10,451 bases of DNA, taken from IMG/VR virus record IMGVR_UViG_2562617113_000011, positions 1-10,451 of that record; one strand, written 5' to 3'. The notes under the pieces were generated by a model. It saw only the letters and a list, made by a program, of their open reading frames with translations, was not told the DNA's origin and did no database searches. The stretch comes from a virus (taxonomy: Duplodnaviria; Heunggongvirae; Uroviricota; Caudoviricetes). Position numbers and translations under genes: made by a program. Below are positions 1 to 10,451 of the stretch, piece by piece; the first letter of the stretch is position 1; every line of letters starts with the position of its first letter.

Positions 1-372
1 TTATCGCCGTAACCGCTCCGGCTTCTTCCACTGGTACGTAATTTTTTCTTTCTCCTGGTACATCTGCACGCGGCGACGGTACGACAACATCTCCAGAACT
101 CTGGTGCGTATGTTGCGTATATCCACGCCATTAAGCTCGATACCGTCACGGCGCATCACCTCAGCCATCACACGCGCGTAATTTTCAGCGGTGACTGTAT
201 CCGGCTGCGTGGCCTGTTCGTCAGCCTGCTGGCTGATTCCGGTAATACTGCGGATTATCCCGAGCGCTTCGGTCTCGGTCATGGTCATGGCCTCCATAGT
301 GATGGCGGGTCCTCCTGGTGGGGTGCCCTGCCACGGGGCGGGAGCATCGCGGAAAAAGGCTAGTTTTTGCAT
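1..372 (-). CDS. Hypothetical protein downstream of the small terminase gene (123 aa as drawn; more likely about 93 aa from an internal start at 282)
   Basis: Complete ORF whose stop codon is the first 3 nt of the window. The ATG at 372 has no convincing SD; the in-frame ATG at 282 is preceded by GGAGG with 8-nt spacing. No family recognised; a short QPDTV motif weakly recalls lambda gpFI but is insufficient to call. Confidence 0.45.
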   Translation of the reverse strand: MQKLAFFRDAPAPWQGTPPGGPAITMEAMTMTETEALGIIRSITGISQQADEQATQPDTVTAENYARVMAEVMRRDGIELNGVDIRNIRTRVLEMLSYRRRVQMYQEKEKITYQWKKPERLRR

Positions 373-491
373 TTTTATTCGTCATCACCACCAATGCAAT
401 ATATTGATATGACTTGATGTTTTATTTTTCGGTGTCGATTTCGATTGTTTTTTGTTCATCACTGACGCATAACTCCCACCAGCGCAACGCT

Positions 492-515
492 GAAAGCCAG
501 TCAGTAAACTGGCTT
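492..515 (-). other. Stem-loop (8-bp stem AAGCCAGT/ACTGGCTT, 6-nt loop) just 3' of the small terminase gene; weak U-tract
   Basis: Perfect inverted repeat seen directly in the 162-nt gap between the TerS stop (534) and the next gene. On the minus strand it is followed only by UUUCAG, so it is an attenuator or stabilising hairpin rather than a strong terminator. Confidence 0.3.
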
Positions 516-533
516 CGGTCATTGTGCACTACG

Positions 534-1076
534 TTACTTGTCTTTATCCGGCTGAAACTTATCAGGCACATTTCCGGTAGTTTCCATCAGATAATCGGAC
601 AGCATTCGCGGGATGTTTTCATCAAGTTTTGTGCATGCGTTACAGGCTCTGACAACTTCTTTTTTCAGGCCATCCAGCATGGCGGGGGTCATCTGTGGGA
701 AGCGCCTTTGCATGGTAAGCGGCAGGCTGTCCATGATAGATGAAATCTGACTCGCCAGTTTTGAAAGCGCATATATACAAAATTCCGTACTAATCACGTC
801 GCCGCGTTCGCGCTCGTTTTTAAGCTCCTGCGCCTCCGCCTGCGCTGTCAACAATCTGATCCTGACTCGCAAAAGCTCATCATTATCAATCTCGCCTTTG
901 TCGTCTGTAATCTGGTTAATTGCATTGCTAACCCGATTGTCTATTACGCTGGCAACATCATAAAACGCCTCGCGGCCTTTACGTTCAACGGGAGTCACTC
1001 CCCACTTGTCGAACGCTGTCGCACTTACACGGCAGCTTTGCGCCATGTTTTTTTTGTTCATCAGGTGCGATTTCAT
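534..1076 (-). CDS. Terminase small subunit, lambda Nu1-like (180 aa)
   Basis: The C-terminal two-thirds aligns closely to my recollection of lambda gpNu1 (e.g. AQAEAQELKN, LPLTMQRRFP, LDENIPRMLSDY); the N-terminal DNA-binding region is divergent. Start chosen at the ATG at 1076 (GGGGA SD, 5-nt spacing); alternatives are GTG 1088 and ATG 1061. Confidence 0.8.
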   Translation of the reverse strand: MKSHLMNKKNMAQSCRVSATAFDKWGVTPVERKGREAFYDVASVIDNRVSNAINQITDDKGEIDNDELLRVRIRLLTAQAEAQELKNERERGDVISTEFCIYALSKLASQISSIMDSLPLTMQRRFPQMTPAMLDGLKKEVVRACNACTKLDENIPRMLSDYLMETTGNVPDKFQPDKDK

Positions 1077-1181
1077 CAATATCCCCACTTAAGTAATGTT
1101 TCAGGTTGGTGTATTTGTTTTATCTTTCCCTTTTTATTCATAGAGATAGAGCGAACAACAAAACCACCACCAGCACCCGAA

Positions 1182-1228
1182 AAAGGCTCATAAATAGCGA
1201 AAACCCGCGCGTCTGCCGCCCCGTAACG
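1182..1228 (-). other. Lambda-like cos site (cosN-like 12-mer GGGCGGCAGACG at 1210-1221 on the minus strand, flanked by lambda-identical sequence)
   Basis: The minus strand reads CCGTTACG-GGGCGGCAGACG-CGCGGGTTTTCGCTATTTATGA. As I recall it, lambda reads GTTACG-GGGCGGCGACCT-CGCGGGTTTTCGCTATTTATGA, so the 22 nt after the 12-mer are identical and 5 of 12 overhang positions differ. It lies directly upstream of the Nu1-like gene, as in lambda. Confidence 0.6.
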
Positions 1229-1277
1229 GGTCCATATGCCGGAAAGGACCCGCCAGCCAGAGCGGGCCCTAATTTCA

Positions 1278-1622
1278 TCAACCAATCAACTTATTGCGCC
1301 CTTTCAGGGCATTACGCCTGGCGCGTTCAATCTTGAGGCATAACGCCGCATCAGGTTTTTCGGGGGTGGGAACAAGGCAATAATTTGATGCGCGCGGAAT
1401 GTTGTTAATCCACGCAACAACTTCGCTTAAATACCATGCCTTGCGGCCTTTCGTAACCTGTACGCGTTCGGGGAACTCTCCGCGAGCCTCAAGGTTTAGC
1501 AATGTGCGACGGCTAAGGGTTGTAAGCTCCACTACCTGATCCATATCGACAAGACGCTCGCTTAAGCGCATTTTATCATCGATATCTAATAGCTCTCGTA
1601 GCTGACTATCTCTTTCAATCAT
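1278..1622 (-). CDS. AlpA/excisionase-family HTH DNA-binding protein embedded in the head/packaging operon (114 aa)
   Basis: The central segment LVDMDQVVELTTLSRRTLLNLEARGEFPERVQVTKGRKAWYLSEVVAWI fits the AlpA/Vis pattern (hydrophobic-T-x-LSRsT-x(6)-G-FP ... W ... EV-x-W). ATG at 1622 lies 9 nt after the D-like stop, with GAGG overlapping that stop. Confidence 0.55.
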   Translation of the reverse strand: MIERDSQLRELLDIDDKMRLSERLVDMDQVVELTTLSRRTLLNLEARGEFPERVQVTKGRKAWYLSEVVAWINNIPRASNYCLVPTPEKPDAALCLKIERARRNALKGRNKLIG

Positions 1623-1631
1623 TCTCGTACC

Positions 1632-1973
1632 TCACACACGTGCCAGCGGCTGAACAGAAATACCTGAGCCAACAAACGCAGCAACTTTTGCTGATAGTTG
1701 TGTTACAGACTCAGGCCAGTTCAGAGCATCAACATTTAAGACGCCGGTTTTATAAACCTGAGCCTGCGTTTTTGTCGCTGTATCGATTTGTACAGCGGAA
1801 ACATAAACAGCTTTGCCTGCGCTCGTTCCATCCCATACCACCAGTGCACCAGTTACATCTTCTTGCATCAGTGGCGTAAACGCAGGGATTACCCCTTTAT
1901 TGGCTGAAAATATCCCCAGCGTAGTAACCAGTGCTTCAGTGCCAGCCATGAGTTCAGTGTAATGAGTAGCCAT
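1632..1973 (-). CDS. Head decoration protein, lambda gpD-like (113 aa)
   Basis: Size and motifs match remembered lambda gpD (PAFTPLM, VVWDGT, LNWPE, AFVGSGISV). Sits immediately downstream of the E-like gene (9-nt gap) with an AAGGGGGAG SD. Confidence 0.75.
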   Translation of the reverse strand: MATHYTELMAGTEALVTTLGIFSANKGVIPAFTPLMQEDVTGALVVWDGTSAGKAVYVSAVQIDTATKTQAQVYKTGVLNVDALNWPESVTQLSAKVAAFVGSGISVQPLARV

Positions 1974-1982
1974 TGCTCCCCC

Positions 1983-3023
1983 TTAACCAATGCGAACGGT
2001 AACAAAACGATTGATGCGGGCCGGTATTGGCTGTGGTGCAGAGTGCGTTTGTACGTACTCAATAGCCGGATCACCTGGTACGATGTAATTTTTCGGCGCA
2101 AGTTCGGCTTTAGTAAGCCCCATTCTGATTAACTCAGGATCCTGAATGCCACCGTAGGCAACGATGCCCTGTAATGATGTGTTGCCAAGCACCATCAAAT
2201 CAGGATCAAGGAAATATCTTTCAGTTCCGTCCTCGTCGGTATAACGTCCGCTATATACCACAATAGCAACATCGCCAACGTAACCCTTGAAGCTTACAGA
2301 ATCCCCAAGATTTTTCAGGGCCGTTTCAAGAACGGAATTAGATCCCCGTCGAGTATCAAGGCAATCTTTTACTGCTTTAAAGGCGCGGTATTTTTTCCAT
2401 ACGTTGCGGCCCATTACGATGATATTTGTAGTACCTTCGCTGATTTCTGCGTACTCTTCGATGTCATCGTTTGGATCAAATGTTGATAAATCTCTACCGC
2501 CCCACTCCGTACCGCCGAACTGCGTGATAATATTTTGTGGTTTTATATTCCAGTCCAGTTCATAACGTTCAATTCCATCGCCTTCAATGATATTTTTCCC
2601 CGTTGTAACCGCCTGAACAGCAAGCCACTCAATACGCGCACGAATTGCCTGCGCTTGTCTTACTAACGCTCGCTTTATTTTGAAACTGCGTGATGAATAT
2701 GCATTGAATTGTTCCGGTGATACGCCTGGTTGACGAACGGCTATTTTATTTGGGTCGATACTACTTTTTGGCTTCATATAGCCAGGACGAATTACTTTTG
2801 ATTCGTAGCCTTCATCGCGTGAGACTTTGCTACCAACCATAGGGGAACAAAATGCAGCCATCGGGATGTCTGGATCGTCAATAATATCAAGCGCAATATC
2901 CCGCGTCTCAAATGTAACGACTCGCTTAAAAAACAGGTTTATAAATAAAGAATTAATCTGCCATTGAATATCTTCGGCATTAACAACCTGTATTAACATA
3001 GCTGGTGAATATAAATCACTCAT
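1983..3023 (-). CDS. Major capsid protein, lambda gpE-like (346 aa)
   Basis: Long collinear similarity to remembered lambda gpE (NIITQFGGTEWGGRDLSTFDPNDDIEEYA, FKAVKDCLDTRRGSNSVLETA, GDVAIVVYSGRY, MVLGNT, VPGDPA); 346 aa against 341 aa for gpE; AAGAGG SD 4 nt before the ATG. Confidence 0.85.
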   Translation of the reverse strand: MSDLYSPAMLIQVVNAEDIQWQINSLFINLFFKRVVTFETRDIALDIIDDPDIPMAAFCSPMVGSKVSRDEGYESKVIRPGYMKPKSSIDPNKIAVRQPGVSPEQFNAYSSRSFKIKRALVRQAQAIRARIEWLAVQAVTTGKNIIEGDGIERYELDWNIKPQNIITQFGGTEWGGRDLSTFDPNDDIEEYAEISEGTTNIIVMGRNVWKKYRAFKAVKDCLDTRRGSNSVLETALKNLGDSVSFKGYVGDVAIVVYSGRYTDEDGTERYFLDPDLMVLGNTSLQGIVAYGGIQDPELIRMGLTKAELAPKNYIVPGDPAIEYVQTHSAPQPIPARINRFVTVRIG

Positions 3024-3207
3024 ATAACCTCTTAATACTTAGTAAAAGTGTCGCGTTAATTTTATCATCTGCCTTGTTCGGCATCTTTATGCATTGCTAT
3101 GCAATAGTGTGCAAAGTTTCAATCTTCGTTTATTTATCCGGCGTTACGTGTCATTCTGTACAGCGTTACAAGTTCAAAGACATAAATTATTCTCTTTGGT
3201 GATGAAA

Positions 3208-3234
3208 GGGTCGGAATATTCCGGCCTTTTTTTT
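3208..3234 (+). terminator. Intrinsic terminator on the plus strand (hairpin GGUCGGAAUAUUCCGGCC followed by T8)
   Basis: Palindrome CGGAATATTCCG extended by G-C and G-U pairs, then TTTTTTTT at 3227-3234. No convincing plus-strand CDS lies upstream. Confidence 0.55.
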
Positions 3235-3256
3235 GCGTGGTGTGACGGACTAAACT

Positions 3257-3281
3257 GATAAAAGCCGGATTGCTCCGGCTT
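3257..3281 (-). terminator. Intrinsic terminator ending the SSB operon (stem AAGCCGGA/TCCGGCTT, loop TTGC, then UUUUAU on the minus strand)
   Basis: Perfect 8-bp GC-rich stem located 15 nt after the SSB stop; the minus-strand read is followed by a T-run. Confidence 0.6.
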
Positions 3282-3295
3282 CTGTCACTCGTTGC

Positions 3296-3718
3296 TTAAA
3301 ACGGTATGTTATCCCCGTACGGATCATCGTTACCCGCCTGTTGTTTTGCCCTGTTCAGTGCGTCAGTAGCCTGCCCCTGCTGGCCTTTTTTGCCGCCCGG
3401 TCGCACCGTTCTCGCACTGATTACGCTGTCTGCGATAACCTGCCAGCCCTGCCGCGTTTCGCCGTTCTGGCCTGTCCACTGGCTTACCTGCATGTTACCC
3501 GCCACGCTCACCAGTTCGCCTTTGTGGTGTTTTGCCAGTGCGTCGGCCTGTCTGCCAAACGCCAGGACAGATAACCACATCGTCGCCGTTCCGTCATTTG
3601 CCTGGCTGCATGGCAGGGGAACCGCCATACTCGCCATCGCCATTTGTGTCCCTTTGCTGGTGGTCTTTAACTGCGGGTCAGCCACCAGCCGCCCGTAAGC
3701 CGCTATCTGTGCTGTCAT
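3296..3718 (-). CDS. ssb: Single-stranded DNA-binding protein (140 aa)
   Basis: OB-fold SSB pattern (GRLVADPQLK ... WLSVLAFGRQAD ... GELVSVAGNMQVSQWTGQNGETRQ), a Gly/Gln-rich linker and a C-terminal DDPYGDNIPF resembling the canonical SSB acidic tip DDDIPF. ATGA start/stop overlap with the upstream gene. Confidence 0.75.
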   Translation of the reverse strand: MTAQIAAYGRLVADPQLKTTSKGTQMAMASMAVPLPCSQANDGTATMWLSVLAFGRQADALAKHHKGELVSVAGNMQVSQWTGQNGETRQGWQVIADSVISARTVRPGGKKGQQGQATDALNRAKQQAGNDDPYGDNIPF

Positions 3719-3993
3719 GCTGTCTGCTCTCCGGTTTTAACATTGATGGTTGTCACCTGTTCCGCTTCGGCAATCTCCCGTTCTGTCAGCGTGGCAAAGT
3801 TTGCTGCCGCCGTTGTCATGAATGCGCTTATCAGGTCGGGATGTTCCTTCGCGTATCCTTCCCCCGCGTGGCGGTCTATCGTTCTGATTGCCACCTTTAA
3901 AGCGTGCTCTGTCATGTCTAACGCGCGATATTTCGGCTCTGTTCTGTCTCTGCGTTTTTTGAGTGATTTATTAAATCTCCCTGAAGTGTGCAT
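3715..3993 (-). CDS. Hypothetical protein, basic N-terminus (92 aa), translationally coupled to ssb
   Basis: ORF with a GAGGGGG SD upstream of the ATG at 3993; its stop overlaps the ssb start (ATGA). No family recognised. Confidence 0.5.
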   Translation of the reverse strand: MHTSGRFNKSLKKRRDRTEPKYRALDMTEHALKVAIRTIDRHAGEGYAKEHPDLISAFMTTAAANFATLTEREIAEAEQVTTINVKTGEQTA

Positions 3994-4040
3994 ATTTATT
4001 TTTACCCCCTCGTTTAAAAAGTTTTGAGTTGTGCCTCCCC

Positions 4041-4268
4041 TTGTCTACCTTATCTACCTTAGTGGCCCCTATGCCAGTAATGGCGCGGCTTTCAGCGGGG
4101 TAGAGTGCTTTTATCCACTATCTACTCCGTATCTACCTCCCTGTCTGATTCAGGTAAAATCAGGTAGAGAGGGTAGACAGTGGGTAGACTGTAAAAAAAG
4201 GCTGTCTACCTAACTTAATATACTGAATTAAATGTATTTTCCTTTACTCAGGTAGACAGGGTAGACAG
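4041..4268. repeat. Iteron cluster, putative origin of replication: about 9-bp GGTAGACAG/CTGTCTACC repeats in both orientations flanking an AT-rich spacer
   Basis: Direct copies at 4163-4171 (GGTAGAGAG), 4172-4180, 4183-4191 (GGTAGACTG), 4251-4259 and 4260-4268. Inverted copies at 4041-4049 and 4202-4210, with degenerate TCTACC units at 4051-4058, 4119-4127 and 4131-4137. AT-rich stretch at 4211-4250. Lies immediately 3' of the primase gene. Confidence 0.65.
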
Positions 4269-4281
4269 CAATTACAAAAAA

Positions 4282-6036
4282 TTATAAAAACGCGTCGCAC
4301 TCGTCTGTTGTTATTGCGTTAGTCTGCGTTACCCCCTTAACTTTCCGCGTAATATATTCATGTCCATAAACTTTTGCGGCAGGCTTCATAGCCTTGCCAA
4401 AGTCATTTACGTTTAGCGGTTTGCTCCTGCCTGCGTATGCCATAAACGCCAGATAGACGCGGTAAAGGCTGTTCCTGGTCGTGTACTTCACTGAATCACC
4501 ACCGCCCCCCATCATCAGGCCGCGCGCTTCCTCCAGAAAATTCAGGAACTGGCAAAACTCAATAACCGGATCCGTCTGTTGCTTTATTGCCAGTGCTTCA
4601 TCACCGTCACGCTGTTCCAGTAGTAAAGCCCGTGCCTTCTCAGGGTCGGTAAAGTTCGCCAGCAATCGGCGGATAATAACGGGGATTTCAGCCGCAATCT
4701 TTTCCGGTAGCTCCCTGTCTTTTTCGGCATCACTGACGATATTGTCGAAACGGAAAATCACGCGACGACGTGCCACACCTCCGGCCCGTTCGGTGAATAT
4801 CATCGGGTTGTTGTTGGTCGCCAGCACCACCGCCCTGATTACCGCCGTGAAACGCTTTTCATATTTCGGGTTAATTTCCACGGGGTCGCCGCCTGTGATT
4901 TTCTTGATGCCCGTTCCTTCGCCTGTATATTTCGGCTGGTCAGCCAGGACGATAAGACGACTCCCGACAACCTGCGCACGTCCACCAGCATCATCAAGCG
5001 ATGTCATTTCAGCGCTTACCGTGTTCTGTTTCCCTGCCAGAAGGCTGGCTATGTGTGTGAATGTACTTTTACCGCTCCCGCCGTCTCCGGTGGCCTCAAT
5101 AAACATCTGCCAGTCGTACCGGTTCGCCATAATCATGTACAGCGCGGCACATATACGCATCATCTTGCGCGGGTCTTTTCCGGCTGCGTGCTCAAGCCAT
5201 TTATGAAAGTTTGGCGCGTTATCGCGGATGTTTTCCCCTGGTGCTGGTAGCGTGTACTCAATGCCGTTGTGCGTGGTGATCCAGTTCTCCGGCGTGTGCG
5301 GGGAAAATTCCCCCGTTTTCAGGTCAAGCGCACCATTGGCGAACGGCAGCAAATCGCCGGACGGCTCGCCCATTGGTTCGGCAATAACTTTTAACGCTTC
5401 CACGGCGTTATTGATTACGCGCTTGCTGAAAGTGGCCCTGTGCTCTGAATAGATCGCCACCATTTCGCGGCTAAGTTCCATTGTGCTGACCGGACACCAT
5501 ACCCCGCCGCGCCATACGTGAACGATTTCACTTTCAGGATGTACGCAAACGCCATCAAAGCGATCGGCAAGCAGCTGCGCGCGCTCACTGTCCGCCATCT
5601 GCGAAAGTTGCGCCTTTTGCTTTACCGGAAGCTCAATGACCAGACCATCAGAAAGATTCTGGCGCTCACGGGCCAGATATTCGCGCCAGTTCTCCACCTT
5701 CTGACCGTGCATACCGTCAGGGTAAAAATTTGCATCCTGTACGCCTGCCGCCGCCAGCTTCTGACCAATTGCCTTTATCATTACAGGCGCAAGATATCCG
5801 GCCCTGTATATGCGTGCTGATTTTCGGCCTTCCGGCACAATTTGCAGCTTATCCAGTTCGGATAACTGCTGCTCCCCAAGCCACACAGGAGGCTCATTAT
5901 CTCCGGCCATACGCGCATCATGTTCCTGCCATTGTTTCGCGTGTGCCCAGGCATCACTACCCGCAAAAATAATGACTTCTGTTCCTTTGTGTTTTATGCC
6001 GCGTGACTGCTGTTTTACGTTCGGTGCCAGTTTCAT
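4282..6036 (-). CDS. P4-family primase/helicase replication initiator (584 aa; Walker A GDGGSGKST, SF3-type NTPase)
   Basis: P-loop GDGGSGKST and a following hydrophobic Walker-B-like stretch RLIVLADQ; overall resemblance to the helicase/C-terminal part of P4 alpha and PICI pri-rep proteins; N-terminal region possibly toprim-like. ATGA overlap with the upstream gene. Confidence 0.85.
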   Translation of the reverse strand: MKLAPNVKQQSRGIKHKGTEVIIFAGSDAWAHAKQWQEHDARMAGDNEPPVWLGEQQLSELDKLQIVPEGRKSARIYRAGYLAPVMIKAIGQKLAAAGVQDANFYPDGMHGQKVENWREYLARERQNLSDGLVIELPVKQKAQLSQMADSERAQLLADRFDGVCVHPESEIVHVWRGGVWCPVSTMELSREMVAIYSEHRATFSKRVINNAVEALKVIAEPMGEPSGDLLPFANGALDLKTGEFSPHTPENWITTHNGIEYTLPAPGENIRDNAPNFHKWLEHAAGKDPRKMMRICAALYMIMANRYDWQMFIEATGDGGSGKSTFTHIASLLAGKQNTVSAEMTSLDDAGGRAQVVGSRLIVLADQPKYTGEGTGIKKITGGDPVEINPKYEKRFTAVIRAVVLATNNNPMIFTERAGGVARRRVIFRFDNIVSDAEKDRELPEKIAAEIPVIIRRLLANFTDPEKARALLLEQRDGDEALAIKQQTDPVIEFCQFLNFLEEARGLMMGGGGDSVKYTTRNSLYRVYLAFMAYAGRSKPLNVNDFGKAMKPAAKVYGHEYITRKVKGVTQTNAITTDECDAFL

Positions 6037-6332
6037 TTTTTACCCCTGAATCCGTTAATCATGGTTTTCAGCTTCTGGATGTTTGCCCGTGCCCTGGCGT
6101 TGCTGGTGGGCACGTTATGCGGCGCGGTCTGTACCAGAGAAAAATCACGGGCAAACTGATAAACAGGCATCACGCAATCATATTCGTAACCTTCACGGCG
6201 GTAAGTTACGCGCCGTTCCTCCACGCCCTTAATCATTACCGTGCCGCCGTACTGGTCGCGGTAAATATCACCGCGCATGAATTTAGTGCGAGTTTTGCCG
6301 CTGGCAGTTAAGCCAGGATATTTAAGTTTCAT
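6033..6332 (-). CDS. Hypothetical protein immediately upstream of and coupled to the primase (99 aa)
   Basis: GGAGA SD 9 nt before the ATG at 6332; stop overlaps the primase ATG. Its position matches that of P4 Cnr-type replication modulators, but this is positional inference only. Confidence 0.5.
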   Translation of the reverse strand: MKLKYPGLTASGKTRTKFMRGDIYRDQYGGTVMIKGVEERRVTYRREGYEYDCVMPVYQFARDFSLVQTAPHNVPTSNARARANIQKLKTMINGFRGKK

Positions 6333-6337
6333 TATTT

Positions 6338-6571
6338 TTATTCTCCGGTGTGCTGTTCTTTATATCTGTCGTGCAATAGGTCTATTTCTTGTAGTTCCAT
6401 TATTACAGGCTCAAGAAGCGTTATTAATGCCGTGACAATTCGGGATTTTTGTTTGTCGCGTTCATTATCGCCAAGCGTTTCAAGCCATAAGCGCAATATT
6501 TCCAACATGTTTTCACTGTGAGAAAGTGCAAGAAATGCGCGGTCTATTGTTTCGTGGTAAATATCACGCAT
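6338..6571 (-). CDS. Hypothetical small helical protein (77 aa)
   Basis: GGGGA SD 5 nt before the ATG at 6571; 1-nt gap after the upstream gene's stop. No family recognised. Confidence 0.5.
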   Translation of the reverse strand: MRDIYHETIDRAFLALSHSENMLEILRLWLETLGDNERDKQKSRIVTALITLLEPVIMELQEIDLLHDRYKEQHTGE

Positions 6572-6572
6572 A

Positions 6573-7025
6573 TTAATCCCCGTCCGTCGCTTTTCTTAAA
6601 ATAACCTCTGTCACGAAATCAGCATAATCGGCGGCAATATTCAGTACATCAAGTCCCGTTGATTTATATTCTTTCGTGGAAAGTAAGAAAAAATCCGCTC
6701 TAATAAGTTCTGGCATTGACGAAAGCGCATCAGCCGCATCACCAGGAACGCCGGAAAATTCCTGTTTCAGGGCATTAAAACGATCATCACGCATAACCCC
6801 CCCATTTTCACAATCAGTAATCAGGATGGCTTTAGCCTCATTCAGTGCCATATCAGCACTAAATTGCATAACAGCCAGTGAGTGAGGAACGAAAGCCCCG
6901 GCATATTCTGTTTCGCTGGTGGCGTGCTTATGTGCCCTGTCCGCGATAACAGAAATATCAATCAGCGCGTGCATCAGCGTTTTGATGGCTTCGGCGGCTG
7001 CGTCCTGACGGGTGTTATTGCACAT
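6573..7025 (-). CDS. Hypothetical protein (150 aa)
   Basis: Strong AGGAGG SD 6 nt before the ATG at 7025. The longer 300-aa ORF in the track is an R/P/S-rich upstream extension and was rejected. Start overlaps the stop of the upstream gene by 11 nt. Confidence 0.55.
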   Translation of the reverse strand: MCNNTRQDAAAEAIKTLMHALIDISVIADRAHKHATSETEYAGAFVPHSLAVMQFSADMALNEAKAILITDCENGGVMRDDRFNALKQEFSGVPGDAADALSSMPELIRADFFLLSTKEYKSTGLDVLNIAADYADFVTEVILRKATDGD

Positions 7026-7557
7026 GGCGCACCTCCTGACGAATACGGGCGGCGAATACAGCGACACAACCGGACGGGCAATGGTTACGCGCTTCGCGTT
7101 CCGTCCAGGCGGTGACGTGGATGATTTGGGATTCTGACGCGCCAAAGATGATAAAGCGCCAGATAAAGACAGTGTGAGAATGTATAAGGGTAGGGATAGT
7201 AGCCATGTTGGCAGCCTCCTTTGACAGTGAAGAATTTCCACCGCAGGAAACGCCAATTTCGCTGGCGGTGGACTGAACGGGGTTGGCGTAACCGGCGTCA
7301 AAGGGAACCGGCGCTTCCGAAGAAGCCCCCGCCCAGCCCACCATAACTTTGATGTGAGCGAATGCGGACGATAAAAAAGACGCTGGCGCGTCATATATCG
7401 CCTTTGACATTTCCAAGACGCCAATCCCGGCACCAGATTTTGCTGGTGCGGGTAAATCATAGCCCTGGCTGGCATTGGCGATCAACAGGTTTTTTACATC
7501 GGGTTTATTCAGGTTGTGCGAGTCCCGCCCTTGCGGGTGTGTGGTATGATTTAACAT
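7015..7557 (-). CDS. First gene of the replication operon: Ash-family-like N-terminal region fused in frame to an Icd-like (host cell division inhibitor-like) C-terminal region (180 aa)
   Basis: The N-terminal half carries motifs I associate with P4-like Ash proteins (AKSGAGIGV, MVGWAG, PVPFDAGYANPVQSTASEIGVS). The C-terminal 63 aa (FIWRF ... ESQIIHVTAWTEREARNHC ... AVFAARIRQEV) resembles Icd-like proteins and has its own AAGGAGG SD before an internal ATG at 7206. GAGGT SD before the ATG at 7557. Family assignment is from memory. Confidence 0.5.
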   Translation of the reverse strand: MLNHTTHPQGRDSHNLNKPDVKNLLIANASQGYDLPAPAKSGAGIGVLEMSKAIYDAPASFLSSAFAHIKVMVGWAGASSEAPVPFDAGYANPVQSTASEIGVSCGGNSSLSKEAANMATIPTLIHSHTVFIWRFIIFGASESQIIHVTAWTEREARNHCPSGCVAVFAARIRQEVRHVQ

Positions 7558-7649
7558 AGCTACCTCGATACTTCTGCTATCGTTGGTGGTTAGAAGCCCT
7601 GCGAGTGGTAACGACACTTGCGGGGCTTTGCATTTATGCGCCTTGATAA

Positions 7650-7730
7650 TTTTAAGGTGTGGCCCACTATATGTTTTAGGTGTGGCCCACGTCAAGAGTT
7701 TTATTTGTGCTTTTTCTGTGTATACTGTCC
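7650..7730. promoter_or_regulatory. Divergent promoter/operator region: two 13-bp direct repeats AGGTGTGGCCCAC (7655-7667, 7678-7690) overlapping candidate sigma70 promoters on both strands
   Basis: Minus strand: -35 TTGACG (plus 7690-7695), 18-bp spacer, -10 TATAGT (plus 7666-7671), so both repeats fall in the -35/spacer/-10 region. Plus strand: -10 TATACT (7721-7726) with upstream TGTG, 30 nt before the RHH-like gene. Each repeat contains the dyad GTGG-C-CCAC. Confidence 0.55.
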
Positions 7731-7756
7731 CCCACCAATCCACCAGAGGAATAGAA

Positions 7757-7936
7757 ATGGCAACGGGTACAACAAACGCAAAATCACAAGCTCTAAAGGC
7801 TCGTGTACCACACGAAATAGTAAACGCCATGGAATCAGTGAAAGAATCAGGCGAAAGCACATCACAATTCATCATTACGTCAATGCAAGGCGAGATCAAA
7901 CGCCGCCAGCGGCGCAAGGCCAAAGAGCAGGAGTAA
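7757..7936 (+). CDS. Small DNA-binding-like protein, possibly ribbon-helix-helix (59 aa); candidate repressor acting at the adjacent repeats
   Basis: GAGGAA SD 6 nt before the ATG; the N-terminal segment KSQALKARVPHEIVNAMESV resembles an Arc/CopG-type strand-helix; basic C-terminal tail. Fold is inferred, not computed. Confidence 0.55.
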   Translation: MATGTTNAKSQALKARVPHEIVNAMESVKESGESTSQFIITSMQGEIKRRQRRKAKEQE

Positions 7937-7993
7937 CCATCACCAGCGCTGTGGTGCGGTGAACTGTGGCGCACTGGGTTACAGGTATCTACG

Positions 7994-8191
7994 ATGACTG
8001 ACAAATCATTAAAGAAATTATCCTCATCCAGGAAAAAACAACGCAAAAATGCGGTAAGCGAACAAGAACAGGAGAGATTTGCGCCATGTGCGTTTGCCCT
8101 TGAGAAGTTCTTAAAAGAGTACAGGCGCACAAAAATGGGGTCGCATACCTGGAAAACATCGCGGCATGGCAATGTTAAAGAGCAGGAATAG
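7994..8191 (+). CDS. Hypothetical highly basic small protein (65 aa); coding status uncertain
   Basis: ORF following the RHH-like gene in the same orientation with a weak SD (AGGT, 7-nt spacing); K/R-rich, no motif recognised. A plus-strand terminator follows at 8295-8322. Confidence 0.35.
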   Translation: MTDKSLKKLSSSRKKQRKNAVSEQEQERFAPCAFALEKFLKEYRRTKMGSHTWKTSRHGNVKEQE

Positions 8192-8294
8192 CCCACCAGC
8201 AAGCCAGCACACTGATCACATTGCCCACCAGCCGCAAATGTGGCATTGTTGGCAATGCTCATGCGTTGGGGATAACGTGTAGCTTGTGTCGAAG

Positions 8295-8322
8295 GGCCAC
8301 CGTAGCGGGTGGCCTTTGTTTT
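8295..8322 (+). terminator. Intrinsic terminator for the small plus-strand operon (stem GGCCACC/GGTGGCC, then TTTGTTTT)
   Basis: 7-bp GC stem with a 6-nt loop followed by a T-rich tract on the plus strand only. Confidence 0.55.
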
Positions 8323-8360
8323 GCCTGTTATCCGGCAATTGTGGCGCTTCGCTACACGGT

Positions 8361-8446
8361 TGATATAATCCCACTGCACTGATTCATTTTTTGCGCAGTA
8401 GGTTAATTGTTCGCAAGGGCGCTCCGGCAACGGGGCGCTTTTTGTT
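8361..8446 (+). ncRNA. Candidate small RNA unit: extended -10 promoter (TGaTATAAT, 8361-8369) followed about 50 nt later by a strong intrinsic terminator (8419-8446)
   Basis: Perfect TATAAT preceded by TGn; hairpin GCGCUCCG-GCAA-CGGGGCGC (GNRA-type loop) followed by TTTTTGTT; no ATG-initiated ORF between them. Lies on the opposite strand just past the 3' end of alpA. Confidence 0.3.
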
Positions 8447-8473
8447 ATGTTCATCGCGTTACGCCTCACACCA

Positions 8474-8680
8474 TTACGCAGCCGTTCCGCGCGCTTCTTC
8501 CTCGCGCTCTTTCAGCCAGGCCAGCACTTCATCTTCATACCAGCCAACACGACGCAGACCGATTTTGAAGCCTTTCGGGAATTTTCCTGCGTTGATCATG
8601 TCCTGTAGCGAACTGTCTGCCTTGATGCGCAGAATATTTTTTACTTCCTGACGGGTAAGTATTTTTCTGATTGTTTCCAC
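8474..8680 (-). CDS. alpA: AlpA/Vis-family phage transcriptional regulator / excisionase-like protein (68 aa)
   Basis: HTH pattern LRIKADSSLQDMINAGKFPKGFKIGLRRVGWYEDEVLAWL typical of AlpA; GTG start at 8680 with GAGGT SD 8 nt upstream; position next to the integrase. Confidence 0.8.
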   Translation of the reverse strand: METIRKILTRQEVKNILRIKADSSLQDMINAGKFPKGFKIGLRRVGWYEDEVLAWLKEREEEARGTAA

Positions 8681-8813
8681 TATGTTTTACCTCGTTAATC
8701 CGGCGTATTCCGGTGATAAATACGGTAAAACAGGGCTGGGCGGGAAAAACAGTACCCACCGTTTTAAAACGGTATCCACTGTTTTTTATCTCATTGATTA
8801 CGCTTTTCTTTCT

Positions 8814-8846
8814 GCAAAAAAATAGCGACCGCAAAGGGCCGCTATT
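8814..8846 (-). terminator. Intrinsic terminator after the integrase-proximal small gene (10-bp stem with one mismatch, then a U6-8 tract on the minus strand)
   Basis: Inverted repeat AATAGCGACC/GGCCGCTATT (8821-8846) followed on the minus strand by an A-run on the plus strand (8815-8820), i.e. U-tract. Confidence 0.55.
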
Positions 8847-8850
8847 GTGA

Positions 8851-9093
8851 TTACCGTTTCCACTTCTTAGGTCGCCCACCGCATTTAAGGCTGGTGGGCC
8901 TCAGCACCTTGTCGATGCTTTCAGCCAGATTTTTCGATGCACCACGCGAGCGCAAAAAACTGACTACCTCGTGTTTTGTGGGGGCTGTTGATTTGTCTTC
9001 CGGATCGTATGTTGACCAGAATTCACGATTTGCCATTAACGCCAGTTGCAGCCCTTCGCCGCAAGCAGGGGATACCTTTTCATTGAAAAACAC
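8851..9093 (-). CDS. Hypothetical protein downstream of the integrase (80 aa), basic C-terminus GGRPKKWKR
   Basis: GTG start at 9093 with AAGGAG SD 8 nt upstream; followed by an intrinsic terminator. No family recognised. Confidence 0.45.
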   Translation of the reverse strand: MFFNEKVSPACGEGLQLALMANREFWSTYDPEDKSTAPTKHEVVSFLRSRGASKNLAESIDKVLRPTSLKCGGRPKKWKR

Positions 9094-9209
9094 CTGGATA
9101 GCTCCTTGAATTTCATGATTTGGGTGACTCCTCTCTGTATTGGGTGGGTTGTGGCGATTATACGATGGTTTAGCATGGTTTGCATCGCTTTTACTGGTTT
9201 TTTGTACAG

Positions 9210-10451
9210 TTACACGGCACGGATACCCCTTTTACCACTGGCTATGGTCACTCCGGTAGCTGCGGCCTCTACAAATTCCCCCCACCAGCGCATAAGCACC
9301 ACGCGCTTTTCCAGGTAGTTACTTCGGTTATATGCTCGCCTTACCTCGTTCGTGTCCACGTGTGCGAGTGCGGCCTCGATTACGTCCGGCTCGAATCCTT
9401 CCTCGTTCGCTGCTGTACTGAATATGGCGCGTAATCCGTGAGACACCAGCACACCAGCGTATCCCATCCGGCGCAATGCAGCGTTAGCGGTCTGGCTGTT
9501 CATTGGCAGCATTGGATTTTTAAGGCTGGGAAAAACATGTTCCCTGTGTGCGCTGATTGGCTTCATTGTTTCCAGTACAGCCATCGCCTGACCGCAAAGA
9601 GGGATCACATGGTCACGGCGCATCTTCATGCGTCCGGCTGGAATCGTCCATGTTTCGGCATCGAGATCTATTTCTTCCCAGCGTGCGGCGGCTGCTTCGG
9701 CTGGGCGTGCTACGGTCAGCAGTTGCCACTCGATTAGCAATCTGGTTTGCCGTTCTATGCTGGCGACCGATAAATCGTGCATTAGCTGCGGTAGCTGTTC
9801 CGGTCGGATGGTTGGCATATGCTTTTTAGTGGGGGAAGGGAATGCCTTGCGGACGTTCGCGGCGGTGTTGATGTCAATCAGCCCACTGTTGGCAGCAAAA
9901 TCCATCACTTCATTGATGCGTTGTAAAACGCGTTTCAGAGTTTCCAGGTTGCCGCGTGCTTTAATGGGTGTGAGTATCTCAACAAAGCGGCGAGCGGTGA
10001 GGGTATCTATTGGCGTGTTTCCGATGTACGGGAATACGTATTTTTCCAGGGATCGCCAGATATCCTTAATCGTGTTGTAAGCCAGATTCTGGCCTTTTTT
10101 CATCTCGTACCAGTCCAAGGCAACTTTTTCGAACGTGTTGCCCTTTTTCCTGCTCTCTGCTTCACGTTTCCGGCGTTCGTAGTCCTGTGGGTCAGTTCCC
10201 TTTGCTATGAGTGACCTGTATTCATTCCGTCGCTCTCTGGCATCAGACAGGGAAACATCATTTAGCGATCCAAGGCTGATAATAGTCCGTTTTTTATCTG
10301 CCGGGCGGTAGTACGTAAAACGCCAGATTTTTGATCCGGAGGGCTTCACCAGAAGAAATAATCCTCCGCCATCCTGCAGGGTATATTCCTTTTCCCCTGG
10401 TCGTGCGTTTTTGATCTCCGTAATAGTTAGTGGGGTGGTTTTTCGTGCCAT
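9210..10451 (-). CDS. int: P4-type tyrosine integrase (site-specific recombinase, 413 aa)
   Basis: N-terminus MARKTTPLTITEIKNARPGEKEYTLQDGGGLFLLVKPSGSKIWRFTYY is typical of P4/CP4-57-type integrases; C-terminal catalytic region with HGLR and the RRAYNRSNY tyrosine motif. The start codon is the last 3 nt of the window. Confidence 0.9.
   Translation of the reverse strand: MARKTTPLTITEIKNARPGEKEYTLQDGGGLFLLVKPSGSKIWRFTYYRPADKKRTIISLGSLNDVSLSDARERRNEYRSLIAKGTDPQDYERRKREAESRKKGNTFEKVALDWYEMKKGQNLAYNTIKDIWRSLEKYVFPYIGNTPIDTLTARRFVEILTPIKARGNLETLKRVLQRINEVMDFAANSGLIDINTAANVRKAFPSPTKKHMPTIRPEQLPQLMHDLSVASIERQTRLLIEWQLLTVARPAEAAAARWEEIDLDAETWTIPAGRMKMRRDHVIPLCGQAMAVLETMKPISAHREHVFPSLKNPMLPMNSQTANAALRRMGYAGVLVSHGLRAIFSTAANEEGFEPDVIEAALAHVDTNEVRRAYNRSNYLEKRVVLMRWWGEFVEAAATGVTIASGKRGIRAV

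Follow-up and report, generated by a model that had tools for sequence, protein, structure and literature searches.

A capsid-linked AlpA-family protein in phage-inducible chromosomal islands of Escherichia coli as a candidate regulator of its own capsid cassette

What is an AlpA-family gene doing at the end of a set of capsid genes? The question is raised by positions 1 to 10,451 of the IMG/VR record IMGVR_UViG_2562617113_000011, the whole stretch analyzed here (10,451 nucleotides [nt]; referred to as the window), in which all genes lie on the minus strand. It carries two genes of this family: alpA1, adjoining the integrase gene (int), and alpA2 (1278-1622), directly upstream of the cos site and 7.6 kb from int. 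Based on its gene set and on a 98%-identical copy in Escherichia coli EC43, located at tRNA-Pro between yejM and yejO, the window is a Gram-negative cos-type phage-inducible chromosomal island (PICI) of E. coli at tRNA-Pro. The helper-embedded PICIs (HE-PICIs) of Tommasini, Mageeney and Williams are its close kin (PMC10111431), and many of its relatives are found inside a lambdoid prophage, in capsid gene E. The answer that we favor, tentatively and as a possibility rather than a probability, is that AlpA2 is a dedicated transcription regulator, probably an activator, of a portable capE-decD-alpA2 capsid cassette.

First, we considered the gene itself. alpA2 encodes 114 amino acids (aa), with the ATG at 1622 and the TGA at 1280-1278, and begins 9 nt past decD. 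Its ribosome-binding site, GAGG (1630-1633, minus strand), is 7 nt ahead of the ATG and overlaps the decD stop codon (1632-1634); alpA2 is therefore probably cotranscribed with capE and decD. A previous sequence-only reading of the locus had proposed an AlpA-family helix-turn-helix (HTH) protein, and the profile searches agreed. AlpA2 matched Pfam PF05930 (Phage_AlpA) with 32.4 bits (gathering score, 21; E value, 8.7e-8), residues 23-72 spanning profile positions 2-51 of 51. It also matched PHROG 2790, "excisionase and transcriptional regulator" (E value, 1.3e-37), a profile probably derived from prophage regions with embedded satellites, and PDB entry 8C3T, an AlpA-family excisionase (E value, 4.5e-10). 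No NCBIfam model matched AlpA2, and PADLOC gave only a marginal HTH match. Together, the 8C3T match and an AlphaFold2 (AF2) model (predicted local distance difference test [pLDDT] score, 77.8) give a predicted winged HTH (wHTH), so that AlpA2 belongs to the AlpA family both by sequence and by its excisionase/MerR-type fold.

Around this core, the protein has an acidic N-terminal helix (residues 2-20), the wHTH (24-73), a linker, and a basic C-terminal helix (92-106). The two extensions, which had been noticed from the sequence, are real and conserved among homologs (WINNIPR...C..P.P...LCLK.ER.RR). PF05930 was present in all full-length homologs, most of which are 127 aa long, with 13 extra N-terminal residues compared to the window protein. 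The recognition helix, TTLSRRTL, is nearly invariant in the family, which fits a conserved DNA target. The ratio of nonsynonymous to synonymous substitution rates (dN/dS) was 0.07 to 0.25 in the pairs in which it could be estimated, synonymous sites being saturated in the remaining pairs. alpA2 is a real gene under purifying selection; the dN/dS values and the conserved extensions ruled out a remnant or nonfunctional open reading frame (ORF). With only 22% identity, AlpA2 and AlpA1 are distant family members and not the products of a recent duplication.

The module to which alpA2 belongs became clear from a census of ca. 170 related loci, the gene content of which was scored by tblastn. The first gene of the cassette is capE (1983-3023, minus strand), for a lambda gpE-like major capsid protein (PF03864; E value, 3.4e-40), and decD (1632-1973, minus strand), for a lambda gpD-like head decoration protein (PF02924; E value, 7.4e-16), is always directly upstream of alpA2. 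alpA2 directly followed capE-decD in 87/87 window-type capE cassettes whose slot could be read and in 0/71 CFT073-type cassettes. Its alleles that were 96 to 99% identical to that of the window were found with integrases 99%, 83%, 24%, and 27% identical to the window integrase, whereas alpA1 covaried with the integrase. AlpA2 thus lacks the integrase linkage of an EcCICFT073-type master regulator, and the cognate integrase/attP pairing expected of an excisionase was not seen, alpA2 showing no covariation with int across these loci. These failed linkages place AlpA2 outside the class of integrase-linked master regulators and recombination directionality factors (RDFs). As for the terminase, alpA2 co-occurred with small terminases (TerS) 81 to 99% identical to that of the window and also with distant ones (36 to 56%), and it was found without TerS beside a lambda-like cosB with R3/R2/R1-like sequences.

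A sister island in strain UTAK-5 (L010), which shares its backbone and tRNA-Pro site with the window, is devoid of alpA2. Its cosN-cosB-terS segment is 100% identical to that of the window, and its capsid module is a ClpP-protease/capsid fusion in place of capE-decD-alpA2. The homology breakpoint between the two islands falls exactly at cosN, the 12-nt cohesive-end equivalent (GGGCGGCAGACG, 1210-1221, minus strand), suggesting that cosN is a module-exchange hotspot. Judged by these comparisons of gene content, alpA2 is tied to the capsid cassette and independent of the integrase and terminase modules, a linkage pattern that argues against a role in cos recognition or packaging specificity and against a role as cognate excisionase.

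The alignment of the capE-upstream regions of 49 distinct cassettes revealed phased repeats that are a candidate AlpA2 operator. In the window, four hexamers in 10-bp phase (3079-3114, minus strand) precede capE, namely, R1, TTGCAC (3114-3109); R2, TTGCAT (3104-3099); R3, ATGCAT (3094-3089); and R4, ATGCCG (3084-3079), forming the array TTGCAC-N4-TTGCAT-N4-ATGCAT-N4-ATGCCG. The array of the E. coli helper-embedded islands reads TTATAC-N4-TTGCAC-N4-TTGCAT-N4-TCGCAT, and that of Kosakonia consists of one TTATAC followed by three perfect TTGCAC hexamers. Phased TTGCAY repeats were found in 86/87 alpA2 cassettes versus 0/81 CFT073-type cassettes, and both UTAK-5 and the EcCICFT073 region lacked them. 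Within 1.78 Mb of satellite and helper sequence, nearly all triple-repeat matches (168 of 171) were located 85 to 111 nt upstream of a window-type capE ATG. An exact search of IMG/VR for TTGCAY hexamers in threes matched at least 120 stretches; of those listed, 5 were this cassette, and the others came from unrelated contexts.

Downstream of the last good repeat by 24 nt, there is a predicted extended -10-like element (TGATAAAAT, 3059-3067, minus strand), and the capE promoter has no recognizable -35. The distance from the last good repeat to TGnTAnnnT was 24 to 25 nt in most of the diverged lineages aligned. Both repeats and spacing were clear in Escherichia, Kosakonia, Superficieibacter, Kluyvera, and Cedecea, despite saturated synonymous sites, while the repeats were degenerate in Buttiauxella and in one metagenome lineage and the -10 was less clear in loci L006 and L008. 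At the capE promoter, neither a generic promoter/terminator scan nor a repeat finder, both run on positions 1-3400, returned any signal above chance.

The promoter region of alpA1 contains another kind of element and no TTGCAY repeats. About 85 nt upstream of alpA1 lies a perfect palindrome (ACCGTTTTAAAACGGT, 8766-8781, minus strand), a candidate operator that either the canonical AlpA or an inducer encoded by the helper may bind. Given this different element, and since AlpA1 proteins diverge widely among cassettes that share the repeats, AlpA1 is an unlikely binder of the latter. Two other identities for the repeats were considered and rejected. The attP arm motif of HE-PICIs (a doubled TGTATTGCA) has a 12-bp period, is located at the att ends, and is absent from the alpA2-carrying tRNA-Pro island. 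The -24/-12 consensus of sigma-54 promoters has a GG and a spacing of 11, but TTGCAC-N4-TTGCA has no GG and a spacing of 10.

If AlpA2 is the regulator of the cassette, several copies of it would bind the TTGCAY hexamers (three or four, with 10-bp spacing) head to tail through the wHTH, by analogy with small wHTH excisionase-type proteins on direct repeats. The repeats would end 24 to 25 nt above the extended -10, that is, at roughly -38 on the predicted promoter, and operators ending near -38 are typical of activator-dependent promoters. From the repeats, AlpA2 would most probably activate the -35-less capE promoter, and as the last gene of its own target operon, alpA2 would be subject to positive autoregulation, with negative autoregulation as the alternative sign of control. 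The extra N- and C-terminal helices might serve oligomerization or contact with RNA polymerase. The cassette would then comprise the promoter with its phased repeats, capE, decD, alpA2, and cosQ, a self-contained unit recombining at cosN.

A late-operon regulator was one of three roles suggested from the sequence, and the strict co-occurrence of alpA2 with the phased repeats at capE lends it positive support. Several points weigh against it, however. All of the support is correlative, and with no more than 1.9 kb between the repeats and alpA2 in a single inherited module, common descent by itself could account for their being found together. Lambda CII, too, recognizes TTGC-N6-TTGC, and the repeats could therefore be bound by a helper protein. 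If the activator gene is part of the operon that it controls, something else has to start transcription, and we identified no such trigger; after the ssb stop codon, two terminator-like hairpins (3256-3287 and 3205-3230, minus strand) separate the cassette from the upstream ssb/replication operon, and the capsid genes thus appear to be transcriptionally insulated. The promoter and its start were placed by consensus only, at a site that a simple promoter scan did not flag. Finally, as to covariation between repeat sequence and HTH residues, the lineages point in different directions: the Cedecea protein combines an R39G change with TTGTAC repeats, yet the Buttiauxella helix is nearly unchanged despite variant repeats.

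An extended form of the cassette-regulator reading is very unlikely, namely, that the acidic N-terminal and basic C-terminal helices of AlpA2 might also contact capsid or terminase proteins and so couple satellite capsid production to satellite DNA. The cassette would then be a self-regulating, exchangeable capsid "plug-in" swapped at cosN, with AlpA2 as its private on-switch, occupying the slot in which EcCICFT073-type cassettes have a scaffold-like protein.

Among the alternatives, a helper CII-type activator could switch on the capE promoter through TTGC-N6-TTGC, AlpA2 being a passenger with another role. We consider this unlikely. The motif is present in the capE promoters of most lineages, as it is at lambda pRE (TTGCgtttgtTTGC, read from the lambda record), and the helpers are lambdoid. 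CII, which is produced soon after infection or induction, could serve as a helper signal. However, the two TTGC of pRE flank the -35, with 13 nt between the second one and the -10, whereas here the last good repeat is 24 to 25 nt from the predicted -10 and three or four repeats, rather than two, extend upstream. The conserved positions of the hexamer are A5 and Y6, while G3 and C4 vary in several lineages (TTATAC and TTGTAC, with GC replaced by AT or GT), and the CFT073-type cassettes, which are mobilized by lambda and phi80, have no repeats. Improbable to a similar degree is that AlpA2 acts in trans on the helper phage or on competing elements, in interference or immunity, and that something else binds the capE repeats. 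Satellites commonly encode regulators of helper genes, an example being CapR of PLE, which appears as a citation in PMC10111431. The strong conservation of AlpA2 across differing island backbones would fit a target common to lambdoid helpers, and alpA2 is probably expressed with the late genes. Nevertheless, we found no positive evidence for such a role, and neither a second repeat motif nor a shared candidate site turned up in the helper late regions flanking dozens of helper-embedded loci (up to 9 kb), a sample that leaves the helper early regions outside.

The two other roles that had been suggested from the sequence were disfavored by the same comparisons. That AlpA2 is an excisionase or RDF, acting late on its own integrase or replacing the Xis of the helper prophage, is quite unlikely. 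Crosstalk with helper excision has been described for AlpA_1, the second AlpA of EcCIMP1 (PMC11773190), but nearly identical alpA2 alleles pair with very different integrases, a partnership that AlpA1 keeps instead; alpA2 has no linkage to att sites, and the repeats are confined to the capE promoter. Least supported, and highly improbable in our estimate, is an accessory protein binding near cosQ/cosN that favors cutting or the termination of packaging on satellite DNA. The cos itself is genuine: positions ca. 1176-1255 are 80 to 90% identical to the cos that lies between Rz and Nu1 in lambdoid phages, and GGGTCCT (1245-1251, minus strand), which we take from lambda to be cosQ, is invariant in these alignments. 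The alpA2 stop codon and cosN are 57 nt apart. However, the sequence from cosQ to the left of cosN is identical in the window, EcCICFT073, and the lambdoid phage PhiR5_1, of which the last two are without alpA2, and apart from a terminator-like hairpin, we found no alpA2-specific DNA between gene and cosN. Together with the intact cosN-cosB-terS of the alpA2-less UTAK-5 island and the assortment of alpA2 with two types of TerS, or with a lambda-like cosB and none, this speaks against a specificity factor for packaging.

The hairpin in question, GC rich and followed by UUUCC (1246-1269, minus strand; dG of -20.9 kcal/mol for the 47-nt segment 1236-1282), overlaps cosQ directly after the alpA2 stop codon and forms a weak terminator-like end of the cassette; clear intrinsic terminators are found at the equivalent place in EcCICFT073 and UTAK-5. 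Downstream of cosN, at the position of lambda R3, is a putative cosB/R3 equivalent (GCTGGTGGTGGTTTTGTTGTTCGC, 1151-1174, minus strand). It is 100% identical in the alpA2-less sister island and so belongs to the TerS module rather than to alpA2, and the Buttiauxella locus L006 has its core in nearly identical form (CTGGTGGTGGTgTTGTTGTTC). GCTGGTGGTGGTTTTGTTGTTCGC is a candidate recognition site for the Nu1-like TerS of the satellite. The corresponding gene, terS (534-1088, minus strand), lies downstream of cos and encodes a satellite Nu1-like small terminase (PF07471, E value of 5.5e-23; PHROG 57, E value of 6e-52), with the Pfam match aligning residues 68-151 only and leaving the N-terminal region outside. 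About 30 alpA2-bearing HE-PICIs have neither TerS nor Rpp (e.g., L062, 9380-9570) but a lambda-like cosB instead and so presumably use the TerS of the helper; in loci like L062, a large opposite-strand cargo gene comes next (438 aa, or a DUF2971 protein).

In order to put AlpA2 into perspective, we compared it with known systems. The AlpA of EcCICFT073 belongs to the same PF05930 family and to the same kind of element, and experiments have established that it switches on PICI genes as well as its own promoter (Fillol-Salom et al. 2018, PMC6092414), the kind of control proposed above for AlpA2 at the capE promoter. It is short and integrase adjacent, however, whereas AlpA2 has extra helices and lies at the end of a late capsid operon. 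EcCICFT073 has capE-decD genes ca. 55% identical to those of the window and no AlpA2; its pre-cos slot, which is followed by RppA, holds an unrelated acidic 137-aa ORF (L011, 2084-2497; WP_000224596.1). This ORF occupied the slot in 69/71 CFT073-type cassettes, which combine freely with TerS, RppA, or neither. The 137-aa protein gave a match (E value, 1e-8) to the C-terminal portion of PHROG 53, "head maturation protease," so it is probably scaffold-like and may be a Nu3-like scaffolding protein, although BLASTP comparisons with lambda Nu3 and with AlpA2 revealed no similarity.

The 8C3T structure is the GIsul2 excisionase, deposited as "AlpA family phage regulatory protein," a minimal protein of a genomic island (57 to 73 residues) with none of the terminal extensions of AlpA2 and no link to capsid genes. 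AlpA_1 of EcCIMP1, located far from the integrase, is the only described second AlpA-family gene that we found for an E. coli PICI (Pick, Stadel and Raivio 2025, PMC11773190), and it is not needed for PICI excision or transfer (PMC11773190). Rpp proteins (Fillol-Salom et al. 2019, PMC6739421) are encoded downstream of cos in the Nu1 position and have 139 to 154 aa with a four-helix dimerization domain. AlpA2 is unlike them in lying upstream of cos, in having no sequence match to them, and in assorting independently of the right-hand module; in the window, a full Nu1-like TerS, not an Rpp, takes the Nu1 position. Nor is AlpA2 a Nu1-type small terminase, since it matched neither PF07471 nor a PHROG terminase profile, as the gene at 534-1088 did.

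AlpA2 homologs formed ca. 100 clusters at 90% identity, with members in Escherichia, Enterobacter, Citrobacter, Klebsiella, Salmonella, Pluralibacter, Trabulsiella, Scandinavium, and Buttiauxella, and a scan of genome contigs added only four further loci, those of Kosakonia, Superficieibacter, Kluyvera, and Cedecea. The position of alpA2, deemed unusual from the sequence, is indeed not discussed in the PICI papers searched, but the gene is common: it spans more than 10 enterobacterial genera and was found in 408/5426 complete E. coli genomes, of which 2662 matched some part of the window island type. In a HMMER scan of 1.84 billion representative proteins, the C-terminal extension or the full architecture was seen in only a handful of 50%-identity clusters (P0005, P0093, P0103, and P0107 share the extension, P0107 being a deletion chimera of capE fused to the AlpA2 C terminus); beyond these, it returned generic AlpA HTH matches and no functional lead. 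A tblastn search of AlpA2 against 50,697 GenBank phage records gave zero matches. In the literature, Phage_AlpA has been assigned to the "integration zone" of HE-PICIs with no mention of a late-zone copy (PMC10111431), and typical E. coli PICIs have been stated to carry one AlpA (PMC11773190). We found no description of this capsid-linked AlpA subfamily in the PICI papers searched.

The remaining genes of the window are likewise on the minus strand. The integrase gene (9210-10451) is adjoined by alpA1 (8474-8680), which was correctly recognized in the sequence-only reading and encodes a 68-aa canonical AlpA (PF05930; E value, 4.5e-8). The variable zone that follows contains, according to Rfam, a C4 antisense RNA (7261-7348; 82 bits) and an isrK RNA (7373-7449; 70.5 bits), side by side between alpA1 and the primase gene in an arrangement that resembles a P4-type CI/seqA immunity RNA pair. 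Given these RNAs, the very long entries in the ORF list at 6573-8469 are probably spurious; in the EC43 copy, RefSeq places small genes (icd-like and YlcI/YnfO) in this zone. Next come a DUF4222 gene and a D5-type primase gene (4282-6332) and the gene for the single-stranded DNA-binding protein (SSB; 3296-3718). At the other end, past terS, there is a small conserved terminal ORF (1-372), annotated in RefSeq as 93 aa (1-282) and aligned from residue 31 to PHROG 1561 (unknown function), which window-type and EcCICFT073-type islands alike keep at their att-proximal end.

Gram-negative PICIs and HE-PICIs are widespread, and the role and control of the capsid genes that they have captured are in question; in EcCICFT073, the capsid and decoration genes are dispensable for interference and transfer. 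For annotators and for satellite-finding tools, our results are a caution that a Phage_AlpA match need not indicate an integrase-linked regulator. If AlpA2 does regulate the cassette, one protein and one 36-bp operator would provide a direct handle with which to turn satellite capsid genes on or off and to learn what they do. The late modules of PICIs would then have a regulatory logic of their own, separate from that of the master AlpA beside the integrase, and this would support dividing the "AlpA family" annotation into functional subfamilies.
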